Below, piece after piece: positions 1 to 11,969 of a DNA stretch of 11,969 nucleotides. Position 1 is the first letter of the stretch. Each line of letters begins with the position of its first letter. The translations under genes and the position numbers were made by a program. Source of the DNA: a virus (taxonomy: Duplodnaviria; Heunggongvirae; Uroviricota; Caudoviricetes); the IMG/VR virus record IMGVR_UViG_2734482785_000020, positions 1 through 11,969 of that record. One strand, given 5' to 3'. Under the pieces are notes generated by a model. The model was not told the DNA's origin. It saw only the letters and a program-made list of their open reading frames with translations, and searched no databases.

Positions 1-147
1 ATGACGCAAATTCCGTTAAAAACCCTGCTACTGTGTTTAACCGCAGTAGCGATAATCTGGATCCTCCACACATCACCTTGTGAGTTGCGATTCAGGTTTG
101 CAGGAACGGAAATTGCGGCATTCTTACAATGTAAGTCTACACAGTAA
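1..147 (+). CDS. hok: Hok/Gef-family type I toxin (small membrane peptide), 48 aa
   Basis: ATG at 1 to TAA at 145-147. Translation MTQIPLKTLLLCLTAVAIIWILHTSPCELRFRFAGTEIAAFLQCKSTQ has an N-terminal hydrophobic helix and the C-E-L-R-F-R ... E-I-A-A-F-L-x-C-K signature recalled from Hok family toxins. It is below the 60-aa cutoff of the ORF track. Any mok/sok partner would lie upstream, outside the window. Confidence 0.75.
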   Translation: MTQIPLKTLLLCLTAVAIIWILHTSPCELRFRFAGTEIAAFLQCKSTQ

Positions 148-155
148 GGAACCGC

Positions 156-179
156 GACGGGGAAGTCAACTTCCCCGTC
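156..179 (+). other. Stable stem-loop in the hok 3' region (10-bp GC-rich stem GACGGGGAAG / CTTCCCCGTC, 4-nt loop)
   Basis: Perfect inverted repeat read directly from the sequence, 9 nt after the hok stop. It has no U-tract, so it is more likely an mRNA-stabilising or fold-back element than a terminator. Confidence 0.5.
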
Positions 180-237
180 AATCGGTTGCCAGGGTAAAGG
201 CCGGAACGGCACCCTATCTGCAGTCATGAACATCACA

Positions 238-270
238 AACCCGCCGTGTAAAAGCTGCGGGTTTTCTTTT
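238..270 (+). terminator. Rho-independent terminator-like hairpin oriented for the + strand (hok transcript)
   Basis: Stem AACCCGC / GCGGGTT with a 12-nt loop, followed by TTTTCTTTT. It lies between the hok stop and the 3' end of the convergent ogr-like gene. Confidence 0.45.
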
Positions 271-281
271 GGCTGGTATCC

Positions 282-536
282 TCAGGCCTGTAGTAGTTCC
301 AGCGCCATTTGCTTTTCCTCCGGGCGCATTCGTTCGATCAACAGCTTCAACACGCCGTTCTCCAGTCCGCTGGGGGTCAGTGTGTGCGAGTAGGTCAGAT
401 TCATCACCCAGGTATGCCCGCACTCAAGACGCTTGCAACGATAATACACGTCAGCAAACCGATCATCTTTCCAGAAGGTCTTTTCAATCACTGCTTGCTC
501 ACCACAGCAAAAACACCGCGCTTTCTGTCTGCGCAC
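282..536 (-). CDS. ogr: Ogr/Delta-family zinc-finger late-gene transcriptional activator (84 aa, GTG start)
   Basis: Cys-x2-Cys ... Cys-x4-Cys arrangement (RCFCCGEQ ... YRCKRLECGHTWV) followed by an aromatic-rich segment, matching the P2 Ogr / P4 Delta fold as recalled. The start codon is GTG at 536-534 with a GGAGG Shine-Dalgarno 7 nt upstream; stop TGA at 282-284. Confidence 0.75.
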   Translation of the reverse strand: MRRQKARCFCCGEQAVIEKTFWKDDRFADVYYRCKRLECGHTWVMNLTYSHTLTPSGLENGVLKLLIERMRPEEKQMALELLQA

Positions 537-686
537 TCCGGCACCTCCTGAATAAACGCTGATTGCTTGACCTGATTTTACTCGTCATCACGGGGGGGGG
601 TAACAGTCATTTCATTCAGTATCACTGTGTTAATTTTGTGTTACTGGTCTAACCAGTGGTTTTTGGGCTCTGTCTCATAATCCGGT

Positions 687-992
687 GGGGGGTGCGCAAG
701 TGGGTCACAAAGGTCACAACAGTCAAAAACAATGCTTAATATCATGATTTAAAAAGGAAATATTTGTGACCTTTTCAAGGTCACAGAAGGTCACACGAGG
801 TCACAGCCTTCAAAAATACCTTAATTATCAATTTGTTATAATTTTAATGTGTGACCTTTAGTGACTTCTCCAAAAGGTTACATGTGACTTTGTTGTGACC
901 CATTTGTGACCTTTAAAATTTACAGCAATATATTGATATATAATATGTTTTTCTATTTGTGACTTTTGTGACCCACTTGCGCACCCCCCCCC
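687..992. repeat. Iteron array (about 13 copies of GGTCACA / TGTGACC) in dyad arrangement with an AT-rich centre, bounded by 32-bp inverted repeats; putative ori/crr-like replication region or recombinase site
   Basis: GGTCACA at 703, 712, 779, 789, 799; TGTGACC or TGTGACT at 765, 850, 883, 894, 905, 958, 967, plus a degenerate copy at 861; spacing 9-11 bp. Left arm 687-718 (GGGGGGTGCGCAAGTGGGTCACAAAGGTCACA) is the reverse complement of 958-992 with one mismatch. AT-rich segments at about 820-848 and 912-957. The array is non-coding and sits immediately 3' of the recombinase and alpha-like genes. Confidence 0.7.
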
Positions 993-1190
993 AAATTTTA
1001 GCGCGACCCCTTAAAATGTTAATTAAACTCACTTGCTCTGTCTCACTCTCGCTAACTCTCTGTGATTGAAATGTATATCGCTACTGTTTGACTCTTTCTG
1101 ATAATTCGGGTGCGAGAGCAAAAAAATTGATGACGGCCACCGCTGCAATATGACCGTCATCGCATTGCTGTTACCGTTGGTTCTGGCCAA

Positions 1191-1218
1191 CAAAAAAGGT
1201 CAGTGGAAAACCGACCTC
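1191..1218 (-). terminator. Weak candidate intrinsic terminator for the alpha-recombinase operon
   Basis: On the minus strand a short stem (AGGTC / GACCT, 11-nt loop) is followed by TTTTTT, about 30 nt downstream of the recombinase stop. The stem is short, so support is weak. Confidence 0.3.
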
Positions 1219-1246
1219 TTTTGCTGCGAATGTAGCGTTCTGTGGG

Positions 1247-2248
1247 TTACTCTGCTGGCTCTTTTTGTTCAGTGAATGCCATATTAGCTATCGGGTTAAA
1301 CCTTATGGCATCCGCCAGATAGTCGGGGGAAAAATGCGCATAAGTCATCGTTTGCTGGATAGTCGCATGTCCAAGAATCCGTTGTAATGTAACGATATTC
1401 CCACCGTTCATCATAAAGTGTGTGGCAAATGTATGACGCATGACATGCGTAGCCTGCCCCTTCGGTAAATCCGGCTTCACCTCCTGAAGGATCTCCCGGA
1501 ACTTCAGATAATCAACCTGATACAACAACCCCGTCCGGCGGGTCTTAATCAGCGGCACGACCGAATCAGCCACAGGAACCGAACGGGATTTTCCGTTTTT
1601 GGTGTTAAAGAACGTCACCCGGTTGCCAATGATGTGCTCTCCACGTAGTTCCGATGCTTCACTCCATCGGGCACCAGTAGAAAGACACAGAATGGCAACA
1701 CAACGCGCATCACCCTCCAGTCGCTCAAGAAGCCGCTCAATCTCATCATCAGAAAGAAAGGCCATCTCTGTATTCTGAATTTTTAGCTTGCGTATACTGC
1801 GCACAGGGTTCGGGTTGTGAAAGACTCCTGCTTCAATCAGCACCGTGAACATGGTAGACAGAACGCACAAGTCACGATTAATGCTGGATGGCATTAAGCC
1901 GGCCTGTAATTTCTCTGATCGATACTCAAGCATAAATTTTTGTGTCATCTGGCTGGCGCGCGGATCTCCCATTTCACGAATCACTTTCTCCAGCCGGATC
2001 CTATAGGTATCGCCGTAAGCCTGGTTACGGCCATCAAGCATCCACCACGTATCAAGCAACTCTGATAATCGCCGGCGATCTGCGGGTTTAGCCAGCCATG
2101 GGTTGTTATGGAAATTCTGTAAAATATGTTTTTCGAAGACCTCTGCACTCCCTTTCCTGACAAAAATTTTCCGTATCCGTTTGCCGTACGCCCCTTGGGG
2201 CCTGATATCGAGCATCCATCGCCCATCATCCATCTTTCTGATCGACAT
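1247..2248 (-). CDS. Tyrosine site-specific recombinase / integrase (333 aa, P2-Int-like size)
   Basis: C-terminal catalytic region HVMRHTFATHFMMNGGNIVTLQRILGHATIQQTMTYAHFSPDYL carries the conserved R, H-x-x-R and terminal Tyr of the phage-integrase fold. The ATG at 2248 lies 2 nt after the alpha-like stop (TAA 2251-2253), with a GGAGG-type Shine-Dalgarno embedded in the alpha 3' end, so the two are translationally coupled. Confidence 0.85.
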   Translation of the reverse strand: MSIRKMDDGRWMLDIRPQGAYGKRIRKIFVRKGSAEVFEKHILQNFHNNPWLAKPADRRRLSELLDTWWMLDGRNQAYGDTYRIRLEKVIREMGDPRASQMTQKFMLEYRSEKLQAGLMPSSINRDLCVLSTMFTVLIEAGVFHNPNPVRSIRKLKIQNTEMAFLSDDEIERLLERLEGDARCVAILCLSTGARWSEASELRGEHIIGNRVTFFNTKNGKSRSVPVADSVVPLIKTRRTGLLYQVDYLKFREILQEVKPDLPKGQATHVMRHTFATHFMMNGGNIVTLQRILGHATIQQTMTYAHFSPDYLADAIRFNPIANMAFTEQKEPAE

Positions 2249-2250
2249 AC

Positions 2251-4920
2251 TTAAGCCCCCTCCTTGTTACTAAATATCCAGCATTTCAGTGTATCCGGCT
2301 CTTTGCTTTCTGCTGCCCCTCTTCCGACATTTGCCTGCCTGGATACCTCGCTACGGACGGTTTTGTACTCAACCAGCGGTCGGGAACGCCCAGACCTGAG
2401 AAGCTCTAACATTTCCGGCTCAGTCCTGATCTCAACGCGGTGAATGGCGGCAGTCTGCCTCAGTTGCGGGATGCTGACGGCGAACCCCTTCCGGTATTCC
2501 TTGCCGAAGTGATTTACGCCGTATTTTGTTGTGCTGTCCAGGTAGTCGAATGCCTCCCAGAACGCTATGACCTCCGGTAAGTCATCCGTCACCGCTTCAG
2601 CCTGCGCTGCTGCCATTTCCTCCAGTTCCCGGCATGTGGCATCAAGCCATTCATCCGGGATATCAATAACGCATTTCAGCGCCCTGACCAGCGCGATAAG
2701 TTGTGCGTGATTTTTGGCGATGCGGGGATGGCGAATATTTTCGCAACCGCAAAGGCGGGTCGTTTCAGGCTCTGAGATCGCCAGAAACATTTCCATAATT
2801 GCCCGTTCGCGGCTGACCGCCCGATGAATAAAGCCTGATACTTCCTCAACGGGGTAGAGTTCCAGCCGTCTCGCCGCCAGTCGGGTATCAGGTGAATGGC
2901 GTTTTTTATCGGTATATATGCGAATCAGTCGCTCAATAATTGCCAGTGAGGCATTTACCCTGGCATTCTGTGCAATCACGATAGCACCCTTAAAATCCGG
3001 GTCGTAGGTGTTGTTATTGTTGGTCTTAACGCCACGAACGCCGATACCACCGCCGTTATAGAGGCTTTTCAGGTTGTCAAAGTCAAACGCGCCTTTTTTC
3101 TGCACCTTGTCCCCCCTGTCAGCCTCAATCAGCACAACGGGCAACCCGGCGACCTGTCCAAAAGTGCGCTTCCAGCCCGCTTCAGAGCCTTTCGTTGGAT
3201 CAACGCCTTCGTAGTTGTCACGACCGCACAGTCGCCAGCAAAAATCAATCAATGTTGATTTGCCCGTTCCGGGCTCTCCGGTGACTTCAAGGAAAGGGAA
3301 AGATTCTGCTTTATCCCGGATTTGCTCACTGAACAGCGAACCCAGCCAGAAAGCCAGGGTAATAATTCCCTTTTCACCAAAAGCCAGCCAGAGATCTTTC
3401 ACCCAGAATTCTGTGAATTCATCCGGTTTTTTATAGTTAATCTGTAATGTTGGTGTTTTACTTAATGGTTTTGCGTTTATGCCATCAATTTCAAAATAAT
3501 CCTCGTCATTGATTTCGTAGGTTTTACCATTACAAACCGCGACATCATTAAACAGCCACGCGCCAATCTCTTTGTTGTATCCGATAAAATCCTGACCAAT
3601 AACCTCTTTTATTGCGGGAAGGTCATTTTTTATTAATGCGTCAAGCTGCGTAGTCGTTCCGGTATAAATACCACCTTTTGCCACATGTAACAGGCGTTTC
3701 TTAAATTCAGATGCGGATGTTAATTGTCCTGATGTAAAAGTATTTTTCACTGTAGTACCATCCGGGAACGTTACACGGAAGTAATACCATGCTTCATCCG
3801 TGTCATTGTTTCGAATGTAATAAAGCGGCGCTGGGTTACAGTTTGCGATTTCTTTTACTGCACCGGATTCCTTAAGTGCAATTTTTCGCGCTTCATCTTC
3901 GTCAACATTTCGCTCATTAATGACACGCTCAACAGCCTTCATATGGCGCTCAATATCCAGCTTGAACCAGAAAACACGGTTATCAAAAGTAAAATGAAAT
4001 TCCTTTCGCTCACGAAAGGAAAACATTATTAGCGCCTTATCTCTTGGAGATTTCGCCAGCAATAAATCACCGTAATAGCGGTATCTTTTCACATCATGGC
4101 CATGCAGCCTTCCGGCGATGTGTAAATCATTCCAGTCGCGTTTATTGCTGTTTTTACCTGGTAATGCTGCCGCCGTTCTCCAGCCGTCTTCGGCGCTGCG
4201 TTCTGCATGTTTTTTCGCGTAACGCTCACCCGCACGCCCGTTATCCAGCGCCCACACGATAACCGGGCGTGGATTATCCCCGCACAGCTTCGCCAGTTCT
4301 TCCAGCGATTTATCAGGGTAGTTCACGGCAGACATGACAGAAACGGCCGCAATGCCATTCTGGTTAAGGCTGATGGCATCAAAGATACCCTCACAAATCC
4401 AGATTTCTTTGGCCTTGCTTAAATCCGCTCCCGGATAAGCCCACCACAGCCCCTTGTAACTGCCGGAAAAATTCGCCTTGCGAGCGAAGCGTTCCGGTCG
4501 GTCTATGATGCGCTCCCACCACACGCCGTCAGCCAGCGTAAAACGCACAGTAGCGGCCTGTTCGCCGCTTTCCTTGTCCTGGTATCGCTCCTGAGTAAAT
4601 GCCCCTTTCAGTGGCTCCACAGCAATATTGCGCGCCTCCTGAAGATAAGCTGCCGCTGCTGCACATGGGTCGTCTTTCGTGCTGATATAGCGATCTGACC
4701 ATGACGAAAACACATCCGGGTAAAGTTCTTTGGTCAGCAGGTCTGTACCGCATTTATTTTCGCGGCCACAGTGTACGATGTACGGCCTCTCAAGACTGGT
4801 AAACAGTTCCTTCTTTCCACATTGCGGACAAACACCATAGCGAAGATAGTTATTTTCTTCTTTAAAGTTGTAATCACGAATAAGACGGTTAATAATCTCT
4901 TTTCTGGTGTTATGTTTCAT
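2251..4920 (-). CDS. P4 alpha-like bifunctional DNA primase / SF3 helicase (about 889 aa)
   Basis: N-terminal zinc-binding motif (CPQCG ... HCGRENKCG), TOPRIM-like EGIFDAISLNQNG, Walker A VTGEPGTGKSTLIDF and a downstream VVLIEADRGD-type acidic motif, then a roughly 250-aa C-terminal extension, as in the iteron-binding domain of P4 alpha. Start placed at ATG 4920 (MKHNTRKEI); the ORF-track start at 4944 lies inside a hairpin and is less likely. Confidence 0.85.
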   Translation of the reverse strand: MKHNTRKEIINRLIRDYNFKEENNYLRYGVCPQCGKKELFTSLERPYIVHCGRENKCGTDLLTKELYPDVFSSWSDRYISTKDDPCAAAAAYLQEARNIAVEPLKGAFTQERYQDKESGEQAATVRFTLADGVWWERIIDRPERFARKANFSGSYKGLWWAYPGADLSKAKEIWICEGIFDAISLNQNGIAAVSVMSAVNYPDKSLEELAKLCGDNPRPVIVWALDNGRAGERYAKKHAERSAEDGWRTAAALPGKNSNKRDWNDLHIAGRLHGHDVKRYRYYGDLLLAKSPRDKALIMFSFRERKEFHFTFDNRVFWFKLDIERHMKAVERVINERNVDEDEARKIALKESGAVKEIANCNPAPLYYIRNNDTDEAWYYFRVTFPDGTTVKNTFTSGQLTSASEFKKRLLHVAKGGIYTGTTTQLDALIKNDLPAIKEVIGQDFIGYNKEIGAWLFNDVAVCNGKTYEINDEDYFEIDGINAKPLSKTPTLQINYKKPDEFTEFWVKDLWLAFGEKGIITLAFWLGSLFSEQIRDKAESFPFLEVTGEPGTGKSTLIDFCWRLCGRDNYEGVDPTKGSEAGWKRTFGQVAGLPVVLIEADRGDKVQKKGAFDFDNLKSLYNGGGIGVRGVKTNNNNTYDPDFKGAIVIAQNARVNASLAIIERLIRIYTDKKRHSPDTRLAARRLELYPVEEVSGFIHRAVSRERAIMEMFLAISEPETTRLCGCENIRHPRIAKNHAQLIALVRALKCVIDIPDEWLDATCRELEEMAAAQAEAVTDDLPEVIAFWEAFDYLDSTTKYGVNHFGKEYRKGFAVSIPQLRQTAAIHRVEIRTEPEMLELLRSGRSRPLVEYKTVRSEVSRQANVGRGAAESKEPDTLKCWIFSNKEGA

Positions 4921-4933
4921 ATATAAATCCCCC

Positions 4934-4963
4934 CCCCACTGCACCTTTTGCAGTGGGGTTTTT
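4934..4963 (+). terminator. Intrinsic-terminator-like hairpin oriented for the + strand, overlapping the alpha translation-initiation region
   Basis: 10-bp stem CCCCACTGCA / TGCAGTGGGG (4934-4943 and 4949-4958), 5-nt loop, then TTTTT (4959-4963); preceded by a C9 tract (4929-4937). On the minus-strand mRNA the same hairpin has no U-tract and partly sequesters the G-rich Shine-Dalgarno of alpha. Confidence 0.45.
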
Positions 4964-4964
4964 A

Positions 4965-5270
4965 TTAATTACTCGTTACTTCTTGTTTCCGGGCAATCCC
5001 TGCGGCTTCAGCCTGACGCCATGAAAAAATGCCGCCAGAAAGATGCATACCTGATTTTATTGATTGTAATTCCCGACTAATAATATTAGACAGAGATGTA
5101 ATATCTTTATTGGTAATTTCTGCACCCACTCCGCAGCTTCTTTCATCAAACATGATAGACATAAGGTTGATGAGATTAATTACATCTGTGAGATCTTCTT
5201 TTGCATCCTCTGTAAAAAAACCAACATATTCTTTATGTAAAAGATTTGCGTAATTCTGATTTTCAGACAT
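4965..5270 (-). CDS. Hypothetical protein (101 aa), AT-rich cargo-like ORF upstream of alpha
   Basis: Uninterrupted 101-codon ORF with GGGGAG about 5 nt upstream of the ATG. The composition is visibly more AT-rich than flanking genes. No recognisable motif. Confidence 0.55.
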   Translation of the reverse strand: MSENQNYANLLHKEYVGFFTEDAKEDLTDVINLINLMSIMFDERSCGVGAEITNKDITSLSNIISRELQSIKSGMHLSGGIFSWRQAEAAGIARKQEVTSN

Positions 5271-5337
5271 AAAAACTCCCCGACCCGTAAAGGTCGAAAT
5301 ATAAATTGAATTCAGTTATCAGTGGATAATTCGGGAA

Positions 5338-5556
5338 TCAGGCGGAAAGCTGCGTCACCTTTAACGCCTTAAAGTGAGTCATTCCCAGCTCTTCCAGCCC
5401 TTCGGCTGCGCGGCGTATGGCTTCGCCCGGTCCCGTTCCGTATACCGTTGCATGTGCATGTTTGGTTAACCCACGTTTATTAACGGCATAACCCAGCACA
5501 AAGAAACGTTTTTCACCGCTGCCATTATTTTTACGGGATGCTGAACGGGTTTTCAT
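5338..5556 (-). CDS. Hypothetical small protein (72 aa)
   Basis: ORF with an AAGGTG Shine-Dalgarno about 6 nt upstream; its ATG overlaps the stop of the upstream 62-aa ORF (ATGA overlap at 5553-5556), indicating translational coupling. Confidence 0.5.
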   Translation of the reverse strand: MKTRSASRKNNGSGEKRFFVLGYAVNKRGLTKHAHATVYGTGPGEAIRRAAEGLEELGMTHFKALKVTQLSA

Positions 5557-5741
5557 TTCTTCACCTTTACCACTGATGCTGTGAGTTCTTCTTCTGGTAA
5601 TTGATATTTCGGCGCAATTTCTTCCGTATACCTGATAGCGTCCCTTGCCGCTTTTCCTTTTGATTTATATTTATATGTGGTCCGGTAGTTTTCTTCCTCT
5701 CCTGTTACCACATTACGCAATTTAATATGAATCTCGTACAT
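5553..5741 (-). CDS. Hypothetical small basic protein (62 aa, MYEIHIKLRN...)
   Basis: Start chosen at ATG 5741 because of a GGAGGGG Shine-Dalgarno 7-8 nt upstream; the longer ORF-track version (to 5870) has no ribosome-binding site and overlaps the neighbouring ORF. Lys/Glu-rich. Confidence 0.45.
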   Translation of the reverse strand: MYEIHIKLRNVVTGEEENYRTTYKYKSKGKAARDAIRYTEEIAPKYQLPEEELTASVVKVKK

Positions 5742-5784
5742 CGTTACCCCTCCATCTCCAGAATGTTTACCGTGCATTTGTGGG

Positions 5785-5931
5785 TTAATTTCCCCGTTCA
5801 TTCGTGCGGCTGTACTCCATGCGGCTGGCAGCACGCAGGGCATCATCACAGGTCTGATATTCCCTGACATGAAAAAACTGACGAACGTCGCCGCTCTGGC
5901 AGTTAATCAGGGTGATAAGGAGCTTAAACAT
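5785..5931 (-). CDS. Hypothetical small protein (48 aa, MFKLLITLINCQSGD...)
   Basis: ATG at 5931 preceded by GGGAGG about 6 nt upstream; the start overlaps the stop of the upstream ORF. Short, so support is limited. Confidence 0.35.
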   Translation of the reverse strand: MFKLLITLINCQSGDVRQFFHVREYQTCDDALRAASRMEYSRTNERGN

Positions 5932-6445
5932 TGCACGCCTCCCGGATACGAATACGGGAAACAAAGACCAGACGGGATGCCGGAAGCAGGGCGCGTGCTT
6001 CGCGCTCACTGGCAGCGGTAACGGTATGAAGGCGAATATTTTTACCGTGGCACTGCATAAAGCGCCAGATAAAATCAGGGCGTGTTGATATAGCCATTTT
6101 GGCGGCTCCTCTTACTGATTTACGGAGTCTCGCCAGCACGCTGCTAAACATGGTGGCGGGACGTAACAGGGTTAGCAGACTGGCGTAAGAGAAACCAGCG
6201 AGCACAAAGGCTCCCCCATTACGCCCCGCCATAATACGGGGTAGGGTGGAATTACGGGCACAAAAAAACCGCATTACGGAAATATAGCGGCTACCCGCTC
6301 TTACAATCAGGCTGCTAAACCCGGCACCTGTTTTCTGAGGCGCGGGCAAACGATACGCCATGACAAAAAAGCGAGTCAAGCAATATTGCAAATTATTTTT
6401 GTGCAATTGCGCTGAGTGATTGATTTCTGTACGTAAAAAGTTCAT
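5924..6445 (-). CDS. Hypothetical protein (about 173 aa), Arg/Ala/Ser-rich
   Basis: Only long ORF in any frame across 5924-6451. ATG at 6445 with GGGA 6 nt upstream (an alternative ATG at 6451). The unusual composition leaves the frame and boundaries uncertain. Confidence 0.4.
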   Translation of the reverse strand: MNFLRTEINHSAQLHKNNLQYCLTRFFVMAYRLPAPQKTGAGFSSLIVRAGSRYISVMRFFCARNSTLPRIMAGRNGGAFVLAGFSYASLLTLLRPATMFSSVLARLRKSVRGAAKMAISTRPDFIWRFMQCHGKNIRLHTVTAASEREARALLPASRLVFVSRIRIREACNV

Positions 6446-6493
6446 AATCATTCCCGAACTGTAGATTCATAGATTTTTCCTTTTGTTGGTGAA

Positions 6494-6519
6494 CGGCCTG
6501 CATCCTGCGGGCCGTTTTT
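6494..6519 (+). terminator. Terminator-like hairpin oriented for the + strand between the capsid-like gene and the small-ORF chain
   Basis: Stem CGGCCTGCA / TGCGGGCCG (one mismatch, 3-nt loop) followed by TTTTT at 6515-6519. On the minus strand it is preceded by an A-tract rather than followed by a U-tract. Confidence 0.35.
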
Positions 6520-6531
6520 CTTATCCAGCTA

Positions 6532-7584
6532 TCACGAATTAAACGTAATCACCCCTTCATCCACCGCCGCATAAAGGTTCACATTCGCCAGTCCATAGCC
6601 CTGATGACGCCATGCCCGCATGTTCAGACGTTTGGTGTCTTCGTTCATGTCGAACTCTGTACGGTAAGAGCCTTCAATGATGTTAATCAGCAGGTTCGAA
6701 AGTGTGGTCACAGCCAGGCGTCCACCCGGCATAAACGGCGGCACAAAGGCAAAATGCCCGGCAATGGTGCTTCCCCATGCGCTGGCGGCTTCGGTGTCTC
6801 CTGCGCCGTTTGCGGTGCTGAAAAGACGCAGACGTTCAGCAGCTGCAAGTTCTGATCCCACCATCACCACAAGGCGCGGATCGTTCTGCCATTGTGCGGG
6901 AATTTTCGTTCTAATCAGATGCTGCGCCAGTGCATCCACCCCCGGAAAATCACCGCCTGCGCCCAGCGTGATGGCATCGCTGATAATCTGTCGCCCTTCG
7001 CTGGTCTTCCTGGCAATTTCATGCCAGCCGGGCGCAACATCCTCGCCGTTCGGGTTGATGTTCGGTGCGGTGAAGGTTGCCGCTGACGTGCCGTTAAAGC
7101 CAATCCGCAGATCATCCAGGTAAATTTTACTGGTCAGATAGCCACACAAAATCCCCAGCAGTGCATCGCGGTTTTTATCGTCATTCACTGCATTGGCCAT
7201 CACAACCAGGTTAATCCAGTCGAGATATTCACATGAGTCCATCTCATAGCATTCAACCGGAGAGCCTTTAATATCCATGGCACGGCTAAAGCGTCCTTCC
7301 TCGGCGCGTCCGGTGGATAAGCGCGCATCCCCAATAAGGTTAATAGCGGACTGATGCGGATTAACTGACAGATATTTTATTTGCCCGGAAAGCCAGTTAG
7401 AGGGGGAAATAAAATGCACAAACGGATTTTTTTGCGTGTATGCGCTGATACGTGCGTAAAGCTCTCTTTCTGCAAGCACGGTATTAATGGCGCTTTCGTT
7501 TTCGTTCATCGCCGGAGATGAAATATTGATACTTTCAAGCACGCTTTCGGCTTTATCTTTCAGTTCATTAATATTAAAAAACAT
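6532..7584 (-). CDS. P2 gpN-family major capsid protein homolog (about 350 aa)
   Basis: Alignment by eye with the recalled P2 gpN sequence: GFNG...V.GW, G.GGD...DAL and DP.LVV.VG..L.A blocks (ours LRIGFNGTS ... VAPGW ... LGAGGDFPGVDALA ... QNDPRLVVMVGSELAA) in the same order and spacing. Start placed at ATG 7584 (MFFNINELKDK) with an AGGGGA Shine-Dalgarno; the ORF-track start at 7656 would overlap the upstream gene by about 60 nt. Confidence 0.65.
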   Translation of the reverse strand: MFFNINELKDKAESVLESINISSPAMNENESAINTVLAERELYARISAYTQKNPFVHFISPSNWLSGQIKYLSVNPHQSAINLIGDARLSTGRAEEGRFSRAMDIKGSPVECYEMDSCEYLDWINLVVMANAVNDDKNRDALLGILCGYLTSKIYLDDLRIGFNGTSAATFTAPNINPNGEDVAPGWHEIARKTSEGRQIISDAITLGAGGDFPGVDALAQHLIRTKIPAQWQNDPRLVVMVGSELAAAERLRLFSTANGAGDTEAASAWGSTIAGHFAFVPPFMPGGRLAVTTLSNLLINIIEGSYRTEFDMNEDTKRLNMRAWRHQGYGLANVNLYAAVDEGVITFNS

Positions 7585-7594
7585 ACATTTCCCC

Positions 7595-8470
7595 TTAAAT
7601 AATATCTTTCTTTTCGGTATGTACAGACAGCAAAGCGGTCGCCGCATCCCGTTCAATTCGTGGCATACTTATTCTGGTATATTCCTGTAACGTCATCGCG
7701 TGGCGAATGGATTCGCTGCCGTTGCTGTAATAATGCTTCGTCAGAGTGCGTAACGCATCATTAATATATTCCTGCCGCAAATGGTTGTATTTAGCCATTA
7801 CTGAATAAGGAATGAATTTGATTTCCTCATTGCGTAAAGTGACGATCGCACTGACTGCCGAAATAATCTCCTTATAAAGATTGATACGGCGATTTGTTTC
7901 CGCCTCCAGTCCGTCAAGCGAAGCGGAAAAAATCCACGCATTATCGCCATCATGAGAAAGATTTTTCCCTGTATTAATAAGGCGTATAGCTTGCTCACAG
8001 GTGGCGCGCGTCTTGCCGCAATTTCGTTTCTCATTTTCAAGCAGATGCGTTTCATGCTCGATAACGTCTTTTACTGAATACCGATCACCATAAGGGTTAT
8101 CAGCACCAGTGGGCTGTAACGGAGTGTTACGCAATTCGCTGATTTTATTTTCCTGAGCAGTCACTTTGTTTTCTGCTTCGCGGATTTTTTGCTGAATTCG
8201 CGCAATGGCAATATCGCAATCTTCCGCAATATCCCGCATTTCTTCATCACTGATTTCATGCACTAATGGCAGGCAATACCCTGTGATATCGCGATATTCC
8301 TCGGCGTGTCTGTGCATGTATTTTGATGCAATGATATCTATCAGGCGAATAACCAGAGAGACTTCAGATTGTCCCTTTTGATATACAAAACTACGGGACC
8401 ACGATGCAATCGTGGTCATTTCCGGGCAGTTTTTAAAAACGGGTGTTAATATCGTGATTGTGTTTTCCAT
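7595..8470 (-). CDS. Hypothetical protein (291 aa), unknown function, with a predicted helical central segment
   Basis: Long ORF with GGAG upstream; stop 10 nt before the capsid-like start. The central segment (IARIQQKIREAENKVTAQENKISELRN) looks coiled-coil-like. No catalytic motif recognised. Confidence 0.6.
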   Translation of the reverse strand: MENTITILTPVFKNCPEMTTIASWSRSFVYQKGQSEVSLVIRLIDIIASKYMHRHAEEYRDITGYCLPLVHEISDEEMRDIAEDCDIAIARIQQKIREAENKVTAQENKISELRNTPLQPTGADNPYGDRYSVKDVIEHETHLLENEKRNCGKTRATCEQAIRLINTGKNLSHDGDNAWIFSASLDGLEAETNRRINLYKEIISAVSAIVTLRNEEIKFIPYSVMAKYNHLRQEYINDALRTLTKHYYSNGSESIRHAMTLQEYTRISMPRIERDAATALLSVHTEKKDII

Positions 8471-8475
8471 AAATG

Positions 8476-8787
8476 TTACTCCGGTAAATCAGTGTCTCTC
8501 TTTTTCTTTTTAGCGTGTTCATGCGGGTTATTTGCTTCGGCAATAGTTGGCGGATTGCGCAACCACCATAAAACATCACTTAACAACCAGGTGCATGAAC
8601 AGCGCCCCAAAGAATGACGGGGAGGAAAAGCGCCGATTTTCTCCAGTTCCCAACGCCGGGAGCGTGAAAGCGTTGTCATCTTTTTACACTTCTCTTCCCT
8701 GATGCGTTCTTCGCAGTCAAAACCATACTCGGCGAGTATGGTGCGACGCTGTTCTGGAGTTGGTGGAATGAATGCGGATTGAGTCAT
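8476..8787 (-). CDS. AlpA-like helix-turn-helix regulator with an N-terminal extension (103 aa)
   Basis: C-terminal half (MTTLSRSRRWELEKIGAFPPRHSLGRCSCTWLLSDVLWWL) fits the AlpA/Xis-type HTH pattern (S.S.....E..G.FP....LG.....W...EV..W). GGGAG Shine-Dalgarno 7 nt upstream of ATG 8787. The roughly 36-aa N-terminal extension is unexplained. Confidence 0.6.
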   Translation of the reverse strand: MTQSAFIPPTPEQRRTILAEYGFDCEERIREEKCKKMTTLSRSRRWELEKIGAFPPRHSLGRCSCTWLLSDVLWWLRNPPTIAEANNPHEHAKKKKRDTDLPE

Positions 8788-8860
8788 GTTTTTCTCCCGT
8801 GCTCTGAACTTTTCGGGGGTTATTTTTCACAAACCGCTCCAATCAGCTCAAGGAGAAGAG

Positions 8861-8894
8861 GGCTAAATTAGCCTACCGGAAGGCTAATTTAGCG
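8861..8894. promoter_or_regulatory. Tandem palindromic operator-like sites (GGCTAAATTAGCC, 8 bp, GGCTAATTTAGCG) upstream of the alpA-like gene
   Basis: Two 13-bp near-palindromes centred 21 bp apart (two helical turns); together they form a 12-bp perfect inverted repeat. They lie in the 121-bp gap between the cargo ORF stop and the alpA-like start and are followed on the + strand by a T-rich run. Confidence 0.45.
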
Positions 8895-8908
8895 TTTAGA
8901 GAATAATT

Positions 8909-9964
8909 TTATCTTTTTAACCAATTGGTTATAGTGTCCTTCGAAATAGTAAATTTCTTTCCATTTTTTTCTGCAATCGCCTCTAGTGCTGTCGCTATCT
9001 TGGTTGGTTGGTCTTTCACGTCACTGAGATACTCACCTATAAGTAAAGCCAAAACATCCCGCATACGGCCAGATACGCGTTCTGACTTAGGTTTTGAGTG
9101 TGTTAATTTGTTGTCTTGGGATGTTGATTTGCTATCAGTCTCTGGAAGGGGGCCAAATGCGGAGGCTCTCCATTTATGAAGATTAGACATAATATAGGAG
9201 CTGTATTTCTTTGTCATTACACCATCACTACCCTCATTATTAATAACACTTTTAATAGTTAAAAAATCTGACTTTGACAGATACAAATCATCAATATCAA
9301 ACTTAATTTCTTTATCAGTTAACAGGCTTACGCTGAAATTACTATCAGGCGCATATATTCTATTGTCTTCACCTGGTTGAATTAACGGGCGAAATTTCCA
9401 TACACTGAAGAAAAAATCGGCATCTAATCCAAAAAAACCATGAACACTAGCATAGTATTTTAAATTTGGTGTAGAGGCATCTATTCCATATCGTGCTAAA
9501 CTTTCTAATTCTCTTTTAAGTGAGTCAGGAAATAATAAAACACTATTCACCACGCAAAAATCATCGCTCACACATAAATTAGTTTTGTAAGTAAAACTTT
9601 GATAAAAATCCCTTACATCCAGATTATCTATTGCAGATATTCCACCTGAACGCCTTTCTATTATATCAACAATGCGCCCGGCAATCTCGCTAAAGTTATT
9701 AAATGACTCATCAAGCCCTAAAAAGACCTCTTTTTCTGACTCATTCAATTCTTGTAAATCGTTAACAAAATCAATTAATTTATCATGCCAGACAAAATTA
9801 TCAGCACAAAATGGTTCAACATAGCAATAACCATCTTCAATCAATATATATAACCTTATATTCCCAGTCATAGCCCAATGAATAAAATCATCAACTGTAC
9901 AACCTAACAACTCCGCAGCCCTTGTTATTGGGTAAAACTCTCTTAGCGGTAATGCCATATTCAT
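8909..9964 (-). CDS. Hypothetical cargo protein (about 351 aa) with N- and C-terminal helix-turn-helix-like segments; AT-rich
   Basis: A 357-codon ORF open from TTG 9982; first ATGs at 9964 and 9958. N-terminus YPITRAAELLGCTVDDFIHWAMTGNI and C-terminus KIATALEAIAEKNGKKFTISKDTITNWLKR both resemble HTH motifs; the middle roughly 200 aa has no recognised motif. The composition is far more AT-rich than the integrase and the backbone, and the gene starts about 15 nt after the integrase stop. Confidence 0.65.
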   Translation of the reverse strand: MNMALPLREFYPITRAAELLGCTVDDFIHWAMTGNIRLYILIEDGYCYVEPFCADNFVWHDKLIDFVNDLQELNESEKEVFLGLDESFNNFSEIAGRIVDIIERRSGGISAIDNLDVRDFYQSFTYKTNLCVSDDFCVVNSVLLFPDSLKRELESLARYGIDASTPNLKYYASVHGFFGLDADFFFSVWKFRPLIQPGEDNRIYAPDSNFSVSLLTDKEIKFDIDDLYLSKSDFLTIKSVINNEGSDGVMTKKYSSYIMSNLHKWRASAFGPLPETDSKSTSQDNKLTHSKPKSERVSGRMRDVLALLIGEYLSDVKDQPTKIATALEAIAEKNGKKFTISKDTITNWLKR

Positions 9965-9978
9965 TCTCGCAAATAAAA

Positions 9979-11181
9979 TCAATCTCTTTTATTCAGTTTT
10001 TCCAGATATTCAAACCAGTCATTTAACGCTTGTAATTTAAAAGGAATATACTGGCTAAGGTTATAGTTAAATTCTGCCGAGCCAGCATTATAAACGTGCC
10101 CTAATAATGACTCGACAATATGAGGCATCACCCCCATATTATTTAGCCCCGTTGAAAATGTTCGTCTTAAATCGTGTAGCGTCCATTTCTCATTATGGCC
10201 AAACATTTTATACATTCGACGACCTTTCAGGGATACGGCTGTGTGTGTTCGTTCTTCCCCTAAAAGCAATCCTGTATCTCCTGTTTTTCCCTTTAAATCT
10301 TTTAACCAACCTCTTATAGCTACAGGTATTGGGCGAACAATTTTTTTACTGTTTTTGCTATTCCCCCGTGGAACTGTCCATTCCCATGAAATGAAATCCC
10401 ACTCACTCCAACGGGAGCGGCGCAACTCTGCCGTTCTGGCACCAAATAAAATCAATAGTTTTATTAGTCGAGAAAAATAAATATCTCCGCGCTCTTCTTT
10501 TCCAAAACGCCAAAGATCTGCTAATTCCCTGTCACTCAACACTCGATCGCGTTGCCCGGCAGCTTCGCCCACATCGCTTAAAGTTAAGTGGGCAAGCGCA
10601 TCGCAAACGGCATAATGCCGAACATTACAGAACCTCAATGCCTGTTTTGCGTGTTGAAACATTCTTCCGGCTGTTTTGGGGCTGATTGCACGTATTTCGT
10701 CAAAGCAGTTAACCCAATACCGCGTATCGCACCGTGATAACGGAAAACTCCCAATTCTGGGGTAAATATGTTTGCACAATTGCGCCCGTATCAGATCTTC
10801 ATCTTTGCGTTTGTGCCTTGCATAGTTAACAAGCCAGTACTCCAGCGCATCCCGAACAGTAACAGGGGTGCGGGTTTCTTCGGTAAAAAGCTGAATCTCA
10901 ATTTTGGGGTTAAGTCCGTTAGCCAACCAGTGGCGGCAGCGTTCCCGCCATTTACGGGCATCTTTCAAACTCATATCAGGATAACGCCCCAACGTTACCC
11001 GATTAAGAGTGCTATCACGCCCACCGAGCCGATATGAAAAAACCCAGCTCACATGCCCTCTTGTGGACAATCTAACCCCCAGCCCTTCACCATCAGCAAT
11101 CATCTCAACATGCTTTCTGGTTGTGCCTGTCAGGGCTTTTAGTTTCCTGTCACTCAGCTTATTAGTTCCAGACACCTTCAT
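9979..11181 (-). CDS. P4-type tyrosine integrase (about 400 aa)
   Basis: N-terminal arm-binding-type domain (GLGVRLSTRGHVSWVFSYRLGGRDSTLNRVTLGRYPDMSLKDARKWRE) and C-terminal catalytic core (LHDLRRTFSTGLNNMGVMPHIVESLLGHV...). Start at ATG 11181 (MKVSGTNK) with GGAG upstream; the ORF-track extension to 11271 has no ribosome-binding site. Confidence 0.85.
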   Translation of the reverse strand: MKVSGTNKLSDRKLKALTGTTRKHVEMIADGEGLGVRLSTRGHVSWVFSYRLGGRDSTLNRVTLGRYPDMSLKDARKWRERCRHWLANGLNPKIEIQLFTEETRTPVTVRDALEYWLVNYARHKRKDEDLIRAQLCKHIYPRIGSFPLSRCDTRYWVNCFDEIRAISPKTAGRMFQHAKQALRFCNVRHYAVCDALAHLTLSDVGEAAGQRDRVLSDRELADLWRFGKEERGDIYFSRLIKLLILFGARTAELRRSRWSEWDFISWEWTVPRGNSKNSKKIVRPIPVAIRGWLKDLKGKTGDTGLLLGEERTHTAVSLKGRRMYKMFGHNEKWTLHDLRRTFSTGLNNMGVMPHIVESLLGHVYNAGSAEFNYNLSQYIPFKLQALNDWFEYLEKLNKRD

Positions 11182-11188
11182 AACTCCA

Positions 11189-11214
11189 ATGTGTATACAC
11201 GTATTGATACACAT
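11189..11214. promoter_or_regulatory. Palindromic element (ATGTGTAT-N10-ATACACAT, containing the perfect palindrome GTGTATACAC) abutting the integrase ribosome-binding site
   Basis: Read directly from the sequence; it sits 8-33 nt upstream of the integrase start codon. Candidate operator or RNA structure controlling integrase expression. Confidence 0.35.
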
Positions 11215-11355
11215 AACATGGTAATACTCAGAAAAACTGAAGTCACCCAAGAACAGAAAATGCTGTAACACAATGGAATTAAATAATTTTTTATACGGAA
11301 CGTGAAAAAGTCAGAAAGGGAGAGAACAAGAAAAACATTACTTCTTGCGTTATTT

Positions 11356-11383
11356 TCGGCACCTTTTATGTAGCGAAGGTGCC
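11356..11383. other. 9-bp inverted repeat CGGCACCTT / AAGGTGCCG with a 10-nt loop in the integrase-upstream intergenic region
   Basis: Perfect inverted repeat in AT-rich intergenic DNA, followed on the + strand by a T-rich stretch. Could be a terminator, an att-associated site or a regulator-binding site. Confidence 0.3.
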
Positions 11384-11670
11384 GGAATATATTCTCTTTT
11401 GTTACTTATTTCTATACCGTGCACAATATTTTTATCCCTCATATTTATAGGGTAAATTACCTGTAAAGTAGTGTCTAATTACCCGCCTCGCAAACTCCAG
11501 TTTTCAAATATCTATTTCAGGTCAAAAGATTGAATTATTCACTGGAGACGATTCGTAAATTCGCTGGATTTTTGACTAAAGTTTCTTTAGGATTTGTCTC
11601 ATCGTATGATTAATTACACCAATCGTTCAACGTCTTGCTGATAAGTGATGGCGATTATATGAGGTTAGCA

Positions 11671-11799
11671 ATGCCTTCTGGAAATCAGGAACCCCGCCGC
11701 GATCCTGAATTAAAACGTAAAGCCTGGCTGGCGGTTTTTCTTGGTTCTGCACTTTTCTGGGTGGTTGTCGCACTGCTGATTTGGAAAGTGTGGGGATAA
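11671..11799 (+). CDS. Small single-pass membrane protein (42 aa)
   Basis: ATG 11671 with GAGG about 7 nt upstream. Translation MPSGNQEPRRDPELKRKAWLAVFLGSALFWVVVALLIWKVWG has a charged N-terminus and one hydrophobic helix. Stop TAA 11797-11799. Confidence 0.5.
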   Translation: MPSGNQEPRRDPELKRKAWLAVFLGSALFWVVVALLIWKVWG

Positions 11800-11801
11800 C
11801 T

Positions 11802-11969
11802 ATGGTCGGTCAGGAGCAACTGGAGTCGTCACCATTATGCCAGCATAGTGACAATGAAACAGAAACGAAACGGGAATGTTCCGTCGTTATTCCAGACGAC
11901 TGGCAACTAACATCGCAGCAGCAAGCCTTTATAGAACTGTTTGCTGAAGATGATCAGCCGAAACAATAA
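11802..11969 (+). CDS. Small acidic protein (55 aa)
   Basis: ATG 11802 lies 2 nt after the upstream stop, with GGGGA 6 nt upstream. Translation MVGQEQLESSPLCQHSDNETETKRECSVVIPDDWQLTSQQQAFIELFAEDDQPKQ; stop TAA at 11967-11969, the window end. Confidence 0.45.
   Translation: MVGQEQLESSPLCQHSDNETETKRECSVVIPDDWQLTSQQQAFIELFAEDDQPKQ

Follow-up and report, generated by a model that had tools for sequence, protein, structure and literature searches.

How does a satellite of the P4 type come to carry a capsid gene? The phages P2 and P4 provide the textbook case of capsid-size piracy and, to our knowledge, size control by P4 is thought to rest on two proteins, Sid and Psu, which have no phage homologues. 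The stretch of DNA analysed here (the 'window': 11,969 nucleotides (nt), positions 1 to 11,969 of IMG/VR record IMGVR_UViG_2734482785_000020) includes a P4-like element that has a gene resembling that of gpN, the P2 major capsid protein (MCP), on the minus strand at 6532-7584. A preliminary description of the locus had proposed for this gene either a distinct capsid-hijacking strategy or the status of a degenerate remnant of a P2-type phage. We find that it specifies a real P2-family MCP homologue, which is maintained by selection and accompanied by an orphan partner gene in related satellites of many enterobacterial genera. The two genes may well serve to make satellite-sized heads.

The MCP reading frame ends with a stop codon at 6532. 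A mechanical list of open reading frames (ORFs) takes the first in-frame start, a TTG at 7656, giving a form of 374 amino acids (aa). An ATG at 7584 is preceded at 5 nt by a GGGGAA Shine-Dalgarno sequence and lies 10 nt past the stop codon of the upstream gene, and the corresponding 350-aa form is the one annotated by RefSeq in orthologues. For these reasons we take 6532-7584 (350 aa) to be the right gene.

Its product matches the Pfam family Phage_cap_P2 (PF05125) over profile positions 42-325 of 327, with an E-value of 5.1e-43 and 147.9 bits (the gathering score is 27), and PHROG 70 ('major head protein') with an E-value of 2.9e-53. Among about 50,000 phage records, tblastn matched 466 from P2-like phages. 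The closest are those of ESSI-2-like Peduoviridae, with about 43% identity limited to residues ~93-372 of the long ORF. Against P2 gpN itself, identity falls to 29% across 177 aa (E = 2e-18). RefSeq routinely labels the gene 'P2 family phage major capsid protein'. An AlphaFold model, generated with 91 homologues (predicted local distance difference test (pLDDT) 79.7; predicted template modelling score (pTM) 0.76), has the full HK97 fold. The top Foldseek match is 7oz4, the capsid of the P2-like phage phiRSA1 (E = 1.6e-21), and gpN from the P4 procapsid (7jw1) is matched with an E-value of 1.6e-20; template modelling (TM) scores against P2-type capsid structures range from 0.62 to 0.76. The capsid protein of a capsid-forming phage-inducible chromosomal island (cf-PICI; 9gyi) is a weaker structural match (E = 2.5e-11). 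Clearly, the product of 6532-7584 is a real P2-family MCP homologue, with a similarity far beyond chance. The preliminary description had made this identification and had named a profile search and an alignment with gpN as checks; both were run and both agree with it.

The same description had placed the gene between the regulatory genes and the replication module and had seen neither a portal nor a terminase gene nearby. This arrangement was confirmed, the regulatory genes being int and alpA. Neither tblastn nor Pfam detected a P2-type portal, large or small terminase subunit, gpO or gpL in the window. By tblastn, the head-cluster proteins Q, P, O, M and L have no homologue in the window or in the satellite-type loci, and about 60 loci of phage type have all five.

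The gene is intact, with no stop codons, in all seven orthologues, which come from E. coli, Yersinia enterocolitica and Salmonella. For well-diverged pairs, the ratio of non-synonymous to synonymous substitution rates (dN/dS) is 0.11-0.18 for the MCP and 0.08-0.15 for the primase. The window and Yersinia genes, for example, have a dN of 0.084 and a dS of 0.72, and low ratios (about 0.1-0.2) persist up to a dS of ~2. The MCP is thus under purifying selection comparable to that of the primase. The selection is not uniform along the protein: the HK97 core has an omega of 0.07-0.19 while the first 65 residues evolve three to five times faster (0.25-0.54), yet still with an omega below 1.

The phylogeny of the family was obtained by neighbour joining (NJ) only, from 86 sequences and with bootstrap. 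The MCPs of the window group, which we call 'satA', form a clade with 100% support and the remaining satellite MCPs ('satB') a second with 94%; satA and satB unite as one clade in only 48% of NJ replicates. The NCBIfam model TIGR01551 has an equivalog cut-off, implying the same function as phage gpN, of 219.65 bits. The window MCP scores 139.1 bits. All seven of the MCPs tested, which include that of the window and come from satellite contexts or the same homologue series, fail the cut-off (128-214 bits), while four phage MCPs, including P2 gpN, pass it with 305-327 bits.

The two groups also differ in where the match starts: at profile position 3-5 in the phage proteins and at positions 21-58 in the satellite proteins. 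In the window MCP the profile match begins at position 42-53, the N-terminal ~65 aa cannot be aligned with phage MCPs, and a gpN-type N-terminus (alpha0 helix, N-arm and gpO cleavage after residue 31) is not recognised. In P2 gpN, the alpha0 helix and N-arm of this region grasp neighbouring subunits and lie at trimer interfaces inside the procapsid, and gpO removes 31 residues from it (PMC7552001). Satellite MCPs are 48-54% identical to the MCP of a P2-like prophage in the same genome. As judged from these comparisons, the satellite MCPs appear to be a distinct kind of P2-family protein with clades of their own.

The second component of the system adjoins the MCP gene upstream, with a gap of 10 nt to the MCP start. 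This gene (7595-8470, minus strand) encodes a 291-aa all-alpha protein, the 'partner', for which no family was found in Pfam, PHROG, NCBIfam or PADLOC. It is 43% identical to a 287-aa protein of Salmonella which, in turn, has a C-terminal motif in common with a 284-aa protein of Yersinia ruckeri. All three can be aligned and have conserved residues towards both ends (R42, I44, I46 and T63-G64-Y65; Y247-Y248, E253 and R256). The family is small: an exhaustive profile search of 1.84 billion representatives gave only about 46 clusters at 50% identity, nearly all of 273-308 aa. An AlphaFold2 model consists of helices throughout; its overall confidence is low (pLDDT 62), and a single long hairpin, at residues ~75-172, is predicted confidently.

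Among 23 tabulated satellite loci, 18 have an ORF of 253-340 aa (mostly 279-293 aa) directly upstream of the MCP gene. In four of the other five the upstream ORF is shorter, split or cut by the contig end, and in the last the contig starts at the MCP gene. Pairwise distances between MCPs correlate closely with those between partners (r = 0.91, Mantel p = 2e-4) and less closely with those between primases (r = 0.53). The latter, weaker correlation is explained by the swapping of replication modules between elements. Because of this difference in correlation, the partner and MCP appear to behave as a single co-evolving functional unit. The length, helical nature, position and co-divergence of the partner, and not homology, make it a candidate scaffold or size determinant. 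The preliminary description had listed a scaffold gene, with portal and terminase, among the functions missing from the locus; portal and terminase are indeed absent, but the coiled-coil partner at 7595-8470 is a candidate for the scaffold.

The two genes form an operon with alpA (8476-8787, minus strand), which is its first gene and lies only 5 nt from the partner gene. AlpA is a regulator/excisionase-like protein (PF05930, E = 3e-7; phrog_2790, E = 3.6e-30). A GC-rich hairpin at 6491-6517, 15 nt past the MCP stop codon, is the likely end of the alpA-partner-MCP transcription unit. A near-perfect palindrome of 32 nt (GCTAAATTAGCCTACC/GGAAGGCTAATTTAGC) is also present at 8862-8893, between alpA and the preceding gene, which encodes a 357-aa protein; it could be either the terminator of that gene or an operator of the alpA operon.

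The cassette is not peculiar to the window. We surveyed the context of the MCP gene in about 25 satellite loci from more than 15 enterobacterial genera, a sample and not a full census. A recurrent order was observed in Y. ruckeri, Salmonella, E. coli and Klebsiella relatives: alpA, a partner of ~280-290 aa, P2-family MCP, immunity and small ORFs, primase and Ogr/Delta. A scan with one genome per GTDB species gave 80 loci, and reference proteins from P2, P4 and the window, used as tblastn queries, divided them cleanly into two kinds. Genuine P2-like prophages, in which Q, P, O and M occur, account for about 60. Sixteen are satellite-type and lack these four genes while carrying an alpha-type primase, Ogr and the partner; their hosts are Morganella, Pectobacterium, Proteus, Xenorhabdus, Pantoea, Candidatus (Ca.) Erwinia, Citrobacter, Buttiauxella, Intestinirhabdus, Kosakonia and Phytobacter. 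No portal or terminase was found in any satellite-type locus examined. Some relatives are closer to P4 than is the window. For example, the Salmonella elements L096 and L098 include epsilon (PF25738), P4 orf106 (DUF5375), a DUF927 primase and a 162-aa double-Ogr Delta. The DUF927 alpha-like primases of the relatives are 36-45% identical to P4 alpha (39% in L096 and L098). The MCP cassette and Sid/Psu never occur together in the satellite loci sampled.

A subclade of satB, from Y. ruckeri, Pectobacterium, Proteus, Morganella, Xenorhabdus and Pantoea, has directly after the MCP gene one for a 173-aa gpO-type protein, a stand-alone protease domain (L002-L004, 11011-11532; also L010-L012, L014, L015, L017, L069 and L070). 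The protein aligns with residues 11-141 of gpO, its protease domain O* (39% identity, E = 3e-27; PF05929 positions 3-145 of 268), and is without the C-terminal scaffolding domain. It has D, H and S residues aligned with D19, H48 and S107 of gpO, of which we take D19 and H48 to be catalytic positions. S107 is the gpO protease nucleophile, as identified with the O(S107A) mutant (PMC7552001). From its sequence, therefore, the 173-aa protein is apparently an active prohead protease. MCP, scaffold-like protein and protease would make up a shell-building set, and for this reason a morphogenetic role is favoured over that of a decoy.

A separate observation concerns the non-coding region just past the gpO-protease gene, where a segment of ~40 nt is ~92% identical to one in a Gilliamella P2-like prophage (L067 ~4684-4724). 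It occurs in four satellites (L014 5345-5382; L015 1771-1811; L069 11529-11567; L070 1966-2002) and may be a common small-RNA or regulatory site.

We infer a P2-like helper from the presence of both Ogr/Delta and a P2-family MCP. In the scheme that we propose, the alpA operon would express the partner and MCP when a helper of this type is active. The satellite MCP, with its non-phage N-terminal arm, would have in the partner a scaffold or size determinant dedicated to it, and the two would build a whole small shell, or defined capsomers of one, sized for an element of ~13 kb. The element measures ~12.9 kb between repeats in E. coli STEC313, close to the 11.6 kb of P4. The shell would form on the helper portal, be filled by the helper terminase and be finished with the helper head-completion proteins and tail. 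Maturation cleavage would be carried out by helper gpO in the subfamily of the window and by the satellite-encoded gpO-type protease in the sister subfamily. As a result, satellite DNA would be packaged and the helper genome, of ~30 kb, excluded.

We hold with about as much doubt as confidence that the partner and MCP cassette has a morphogenetic role overall and replaces Sid and Psu as the route to satellite-sized heads. A more specific version can be put forward only tentatively: these would be minimal capsid-forming satellites, in which two proteins suffice for a small shell, namely an MCP whose N-arm is private to the satellites and a scaffold of coiled-coil type that is likewise private to them, joined in one subfamily by a protease; only portal, terminase, head-completion proteins and tail would be taken from the helper. 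It is a similarly speculative suggestion that such minimal satellites are an evolutionary and mechanistic intermediate between P4, in which Sid reshapes the helper shell, and the cf-PICIs, which provide a whole head.

Several results weigh against a morphogenetic role. No packaging signal common to the element and a P2-like helper was detected: the 19-nt P2 cohesive end, allowing up to three mismatches, is absent from the window; blastn of the window against P4 returned nothing; and when satellites were compared with the co-resident P2-like prophages of Buttiauxella A111, X. vietnamensis and Ca. E. dacicola, or with the sequence that follows phage portal genes, all matches were coding (MCP, ogr and primase) and no cohesive-end site (cos) was identified. 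Neither the sequence nor the fold of the partner could be related to gpO, Sid or known scaffolds; it matches only generic coiled coils (the hhalign probability against Sid is 0.2%), and its model, as noted above, is of low confidence (pLDDT 62). A P2-type late promoter (TGT-N12-ACA) was not seen upstream of alpA, where the sequence was inspected by eye only and not searched systematically. None of the nine element-bearing E. coli genomes is among the 47 with ESSI-2-like head genes, although with an expectation of only ~0.05-0.08 this is uninformative. Finally, in EcCICFT073, the only Gram-negative PICI for which this has been tried, deletion of the lambda-type MCP homologue left both interference and transfer unaffected (PMC6092414; PMC10111431).

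One alternative, in line with the co-assembly with gpN suggested in the preliminary description, is that the satellite MCP does not form a shell of its own but mixes with helper gpN, for example at the pentamers, and so biases assembly towards a small T=4 shell, with the partner as a Sid-like external cage or chaperone. We regard this as possible, if doubtful. Such co-assembly has a direct precedent in Ccm of SaPIbov5, which is found at the pentamers of small capsids, and several features of the satellites fit it: the MCP belongs to the family of the presumed helper, being 43-54% identical to ESSI-2-like or co-resident phage MCPs, a satellite with no portal would need helper-nucleated assembly in any case, and the cassette and Sid/Psu are never found together in our sample. 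However, the N-terminal arm that makes inter-subunit contacts in gpN is replaced in the satellite MCPs, and a co-evolving partner, with a protease in one subfamily, exceeds the needs of a Ccm-like protein. The sequence data do not separate a mixed shell from one built by the satellite itself, and the two ideas overlap.

It is less probable that the cassette serves interference or defence only, the MCP and partner being a dominant-negative or decoy pair that poisons P2-like capsid assembly, to the benefit of the host or the satellite, and takes no part in satellite particles. Satellites commonly interfere with their helpers, the MCP homologue of a PICI is not needed for transfer, the gene is near the accessory region, and purifying selection and co-inheritance with the partner would be equally expected of a defence pair. 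On the other hand, PADLOC gave no match for the MCP or partner (nor for the 357-aa protein or recombinase), and the cassette is universal and fixed in position while the true hotspot genes vary (HATPase_c_3, DndB, GmrSD). In addition, the full HK97 fold is kept, and the apparently active prohead protease of the sister subfamily fits maturation better.

The remaining possibility, raised in the preliminary description, of a relic of a degraded P2-like prophage with no current function is effectively refuted: homologues of the MCP, ogr, primase and Int_N recombinase in P2-like prophages do point to a partly phage-derived ancestry, but the gene is intact in every orthologue examined with a dN/dS of about 0.1-0.2 up to a dS of ~2, under selection as strong as that on the primase, the cassette is conserved in more than 15 genera and the same 12-13-kb architecture at three chromosomal sites, the satellite MCP clades have 94-100% bootstrap support, and the element is equipped with a probable origin, an RNA immunity system, AlpA and an integrase.

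All genes in the window, including those of the rest of the element, are on the minus strand. The integrase (9979-11271) is of P4 type (Arm-DNA-bind_3 and Phage_integrase domains). The gene for the 357-aa protein (8909-9982), in a stretch of low GC content (33-37%), separates int from alpA, which is where P4 has its accessory/defence hotspot; the protein has no match in Pfam, PHROGs, NCBIfam or PADLOC. Homologues of 348-357 aa, 30% identical, follow the same integrase type in Salmonella elements L096 and L098, and none is present in E. coli ETEC1716. The protein therefore seems to travel with the integrase and not to be random cargo. Variable cargo was observed elsewhere: three otherwise identical Y. 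ruckeri elements differ between Ogr/Delta and the integrase (L002-L004 ~16300-18350), where the cargo is HATPase_c_3 or DndB, each beside an unknown gene, or else GmrSD. The region is a defence hotspot comparable to the one in P4.

The region immediately downstream of the MCP gene (6149-6356, minus strand) specifies immunity by RNA of the P4-cI/P1-C4 type. It comprises a C4/cI-type antisense RNA at 6149-6236 (Rfam RF01695, 74.1 bits, E = 2.6e-13) and, at 6262-6356, the a1/b1 target of the C4 RNA together with an isrK-like element (RF01394, 47.3 bits; RF03163). An ORF of 175 aa at 5924-6451 overlaps these RNA genes with its N-terminal two-thirds, a part that is probably non-coding, and resembles the cell-division inhibitor Icd in its last ~45 aa only. 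The Icd-like domain (5948-6073, minus strand; residues 127-168) is supported by NF033153 (E = 7e-13) and by the RefSeq annotation of orthologues. Several small ORFs separate it from the primase gene.

The replication protein (2251-4944, minus strand) is an 897-aa Toprim primase/helicase-type protein (phrog_1139, 1014.7 bits; Toprim_2/3) with a weak match to DUF5906 (E = 0.007). With tblastn it resembles neither P4 alpha nor the DUF927 primases of those sister satellites in which this MCP cassette also occurs. Primases in some P2-like prophages share 50-52% identity with it (loci L038, L042, L044, L048, L081 and L085). The protein would be a functional counterpart of P4 alpha from another family. 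It is followed directly by the gene for a second tyrosine recombinase (1247-2248, minus strand; Int_N and Phage_integrase, Xer-like), which is conserved among the relatives from Salmonella, Yersinia and E. coli and has a counterpart with 54% identity in a Ca. Erwinia dacicola P2-like prophage (L085). Resolution of multimers and a second integration specificity are both possible functions. These similarities indicate that replication modules, ogr and the Int_N recombinase have been exchanged between helper-type phages and the satellites.

A probable replication origin was identified at 679-997. Ten of the 11 GGTCACA heptamers in the window, where about one would be expected, fall at 703-973, in both orientations and within a 41-nt inverted repeat (679-719/957-997) with G8/C9 tracts nearby. 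The last of the main genes (282-536, minus strand) encodes a zinc-finger activator of the Ogr/Delta family of P2 late-gene transactivators (84 aa; PF04606, E = 6e-11; phrog_603). It is a single domain of Ogr size and tblastn against P4 Delta was negative. No epsilon was detected among the small ORFs of the window. In addition, tblastn found neither Sid nor Psu in the window or the related satellite loci, and no such Pfam entry was assigned to neighbouring genes. The left end of the window (1-281) resembles a hok/gef-mok-sok type I toxin-antitoxin region and is 70-77% identical to MokW-like regions of several coliphages; orthologous elements have a RefSeq Hok/Gef gene at this place.

The element meets the chromosome at about 11332-11345. 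The right flank, from ~11332, is E. coli core DNA (the cysB/ymiA/yciX region) present in 5422 of 5426 genomes, and the left edge of the window falls inside the element. Only nine of 5426 complete E. coli genomes carry the element. In one, STEC313, it is 94% identical over window 1-11345, is located between hpt and gcd and is bounded by a 24-nt direct repeat 12.9 kb apart (L001 3999-4022 and 16940-16963). The element family occupies three chromosomal sites: ymiA/yciX-cysB, as in the window; hpt-gcd, at the 5' end of hpt with the 24-nt direct repeat (STEC313, A36 and Salmonella); and a tRNA-Arg gene beside yfdC (ETEC1716 and Y. enterocolitica; L091 11426-11500), with a different integrase. The integrase of the window is 99% identical to that of the hpt site despite the different flank. 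A predicted IMG/VR provirus of 12,061 bp aligns with window 1-8828 at 92% and gives no evidence of packaging, and two Logan contigs of 10.5 kb and 11.6 kb with relatives, in which circular or virion copies were sought, have no terminal overlap. On its gene content and boundaries, this would be a mobile, integrative and self-replicating element of P4 size and not a prophage.

If our proposal is correct, Sid and Psu are replaced by a shell protein of phage origin and a private partner in a sister lineage of P4-like elements that is widespread, and two strategies of size control could be compared as they occur naturally on a single helper family. If, moreover, the satellites build their own shell, this would be a second, independent solution to capsid-size control on that family. 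The lineage would then link P4-like elements mechanistically to PICIs, Ccm and cf-PICIs and offer a two-gene system for asking how an HK97-fold protein picks T=4 over T=7. Its members carry variable defence cargo, as do other P4-like satellites. Satellite and prophage finders probably put these elements into the wrong bin, since sid and psu are absent and a 'phage major capsid' annotation is present.

The closest comparison is with P4. The element has in common with it a size of ~12-13 kb, integration by a P4-type integrase, AlpA, C4/cI-type RNA immunity, Icd, an Ogr/Delta activator, replication driven by a primase of its own, an accessory gene that separates int from the regulatory genes, and the absence of portal, terminase and tail genes. 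Close relatives add epsilon, orf106, a DUF927 alpha-like primase and a double-Ogr Delta. P4 itself has no structural genes and uses Sid and Psu, and Sid alone can drive assembly of gpN in the absence of gpO (PMC7552001). The window element lacks both, their role presumably being taken by the partner and MCP cassette in the alpA operon. It also differs in its unidirectional genes, a primase of another family, a second tyrosine recombinase and the lack of an identifiable P2/P4 cos sequence. The P4-like backbone of the preliminary description therefore holds for int, AlpA, the C4 RNA and Ogr/Delta but not for Sid/Psu, for the primase, which is not detectably related to P4 alpha, or for the layout, which resembles that of Gram-negative PICIs. 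The papers on P4-like satellites that were consulted mention no MCP, and in them the conserved module for subversion is Psu-Delta-Sid. Within the literature searched, which did not cover subscription-only papers, no P4-like element was described as having a P2-family MCP.

SaPIbov5, a cos-type island with helper phi12, provides the nearest parallel for the MCP itself: its Ccm is an MCP homologue that redirects capsid size and is located at the pentamers of small capsids (PMC8569155). In both cases the satellite, which has neither portal nor terminase, encodes an HK97 MCP homologue of the helper family (the helper here being deduced). The two systems differ in MCP family, host phylum and helper type. 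Ccm turns prolate capsids isometric; here the presumed change is from T=7 to T=4. Moreover, in the window family a co-evolving partner gene is obligatory and, in one subfamily, a protease is added.

Gram-negative PICIs resemble the element in their unidirectional int-alpA-...-pri-ori layout, a size of 10-20 kb and a lone MCP homologue (definition in PMC10111431). An MCP gene, not needed for transfer, is present in 21 of the 29 reference islands (PMC10111431), and PmCI172, which has an MCP homologue, produces small capsids on a Mu-like myovirus helper (PMC6092414, PMC6893505). The MCP homologues of these islands (EcCICFT073 c1499; PmCI172) are, however, of lambda-E or Mu type, with lambda-like or Mu-like helpers. 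Those islands have neither Ogr/Delta nor C4-type immunity, and the capsid gene of EcCICFT073 is dispensable, whereas here the MCP gene lies upstream of the replication genes with a fixed partner. PICIs redirect packaging by terS or rpp; no terS-like gene was found in the window with Pfam, PHROG or tblastn.

The cf-PICIs (for example EcCIEDL933 and EcCI2) likewise have their own HK97-fold capsid protein, are matched by the sister subfamily in a prohead protease, and leave the rest to the helper. They differ in also encoding portal, head-tail adaptor/connector and terminase, none of which was detected here by Pfam, PHROG or tblastn. Should the element make a shell by itself, it would be a cf-PICI in a much more reduced form. 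The reading in the preliminary description is supported in part: a real MCP homologue is present in a satellite, but a lone satellite MCP has precedents in SaPIbov5 Ccm, PmCI172 and the 21 Gram-negative PICIs. The element belongs to a P4-like/PICI-like hybrid lineage with an MCP and partner cassette which, given the Ccm, Gram-negative PICI and cf-PICI precedents, is not categorically new.

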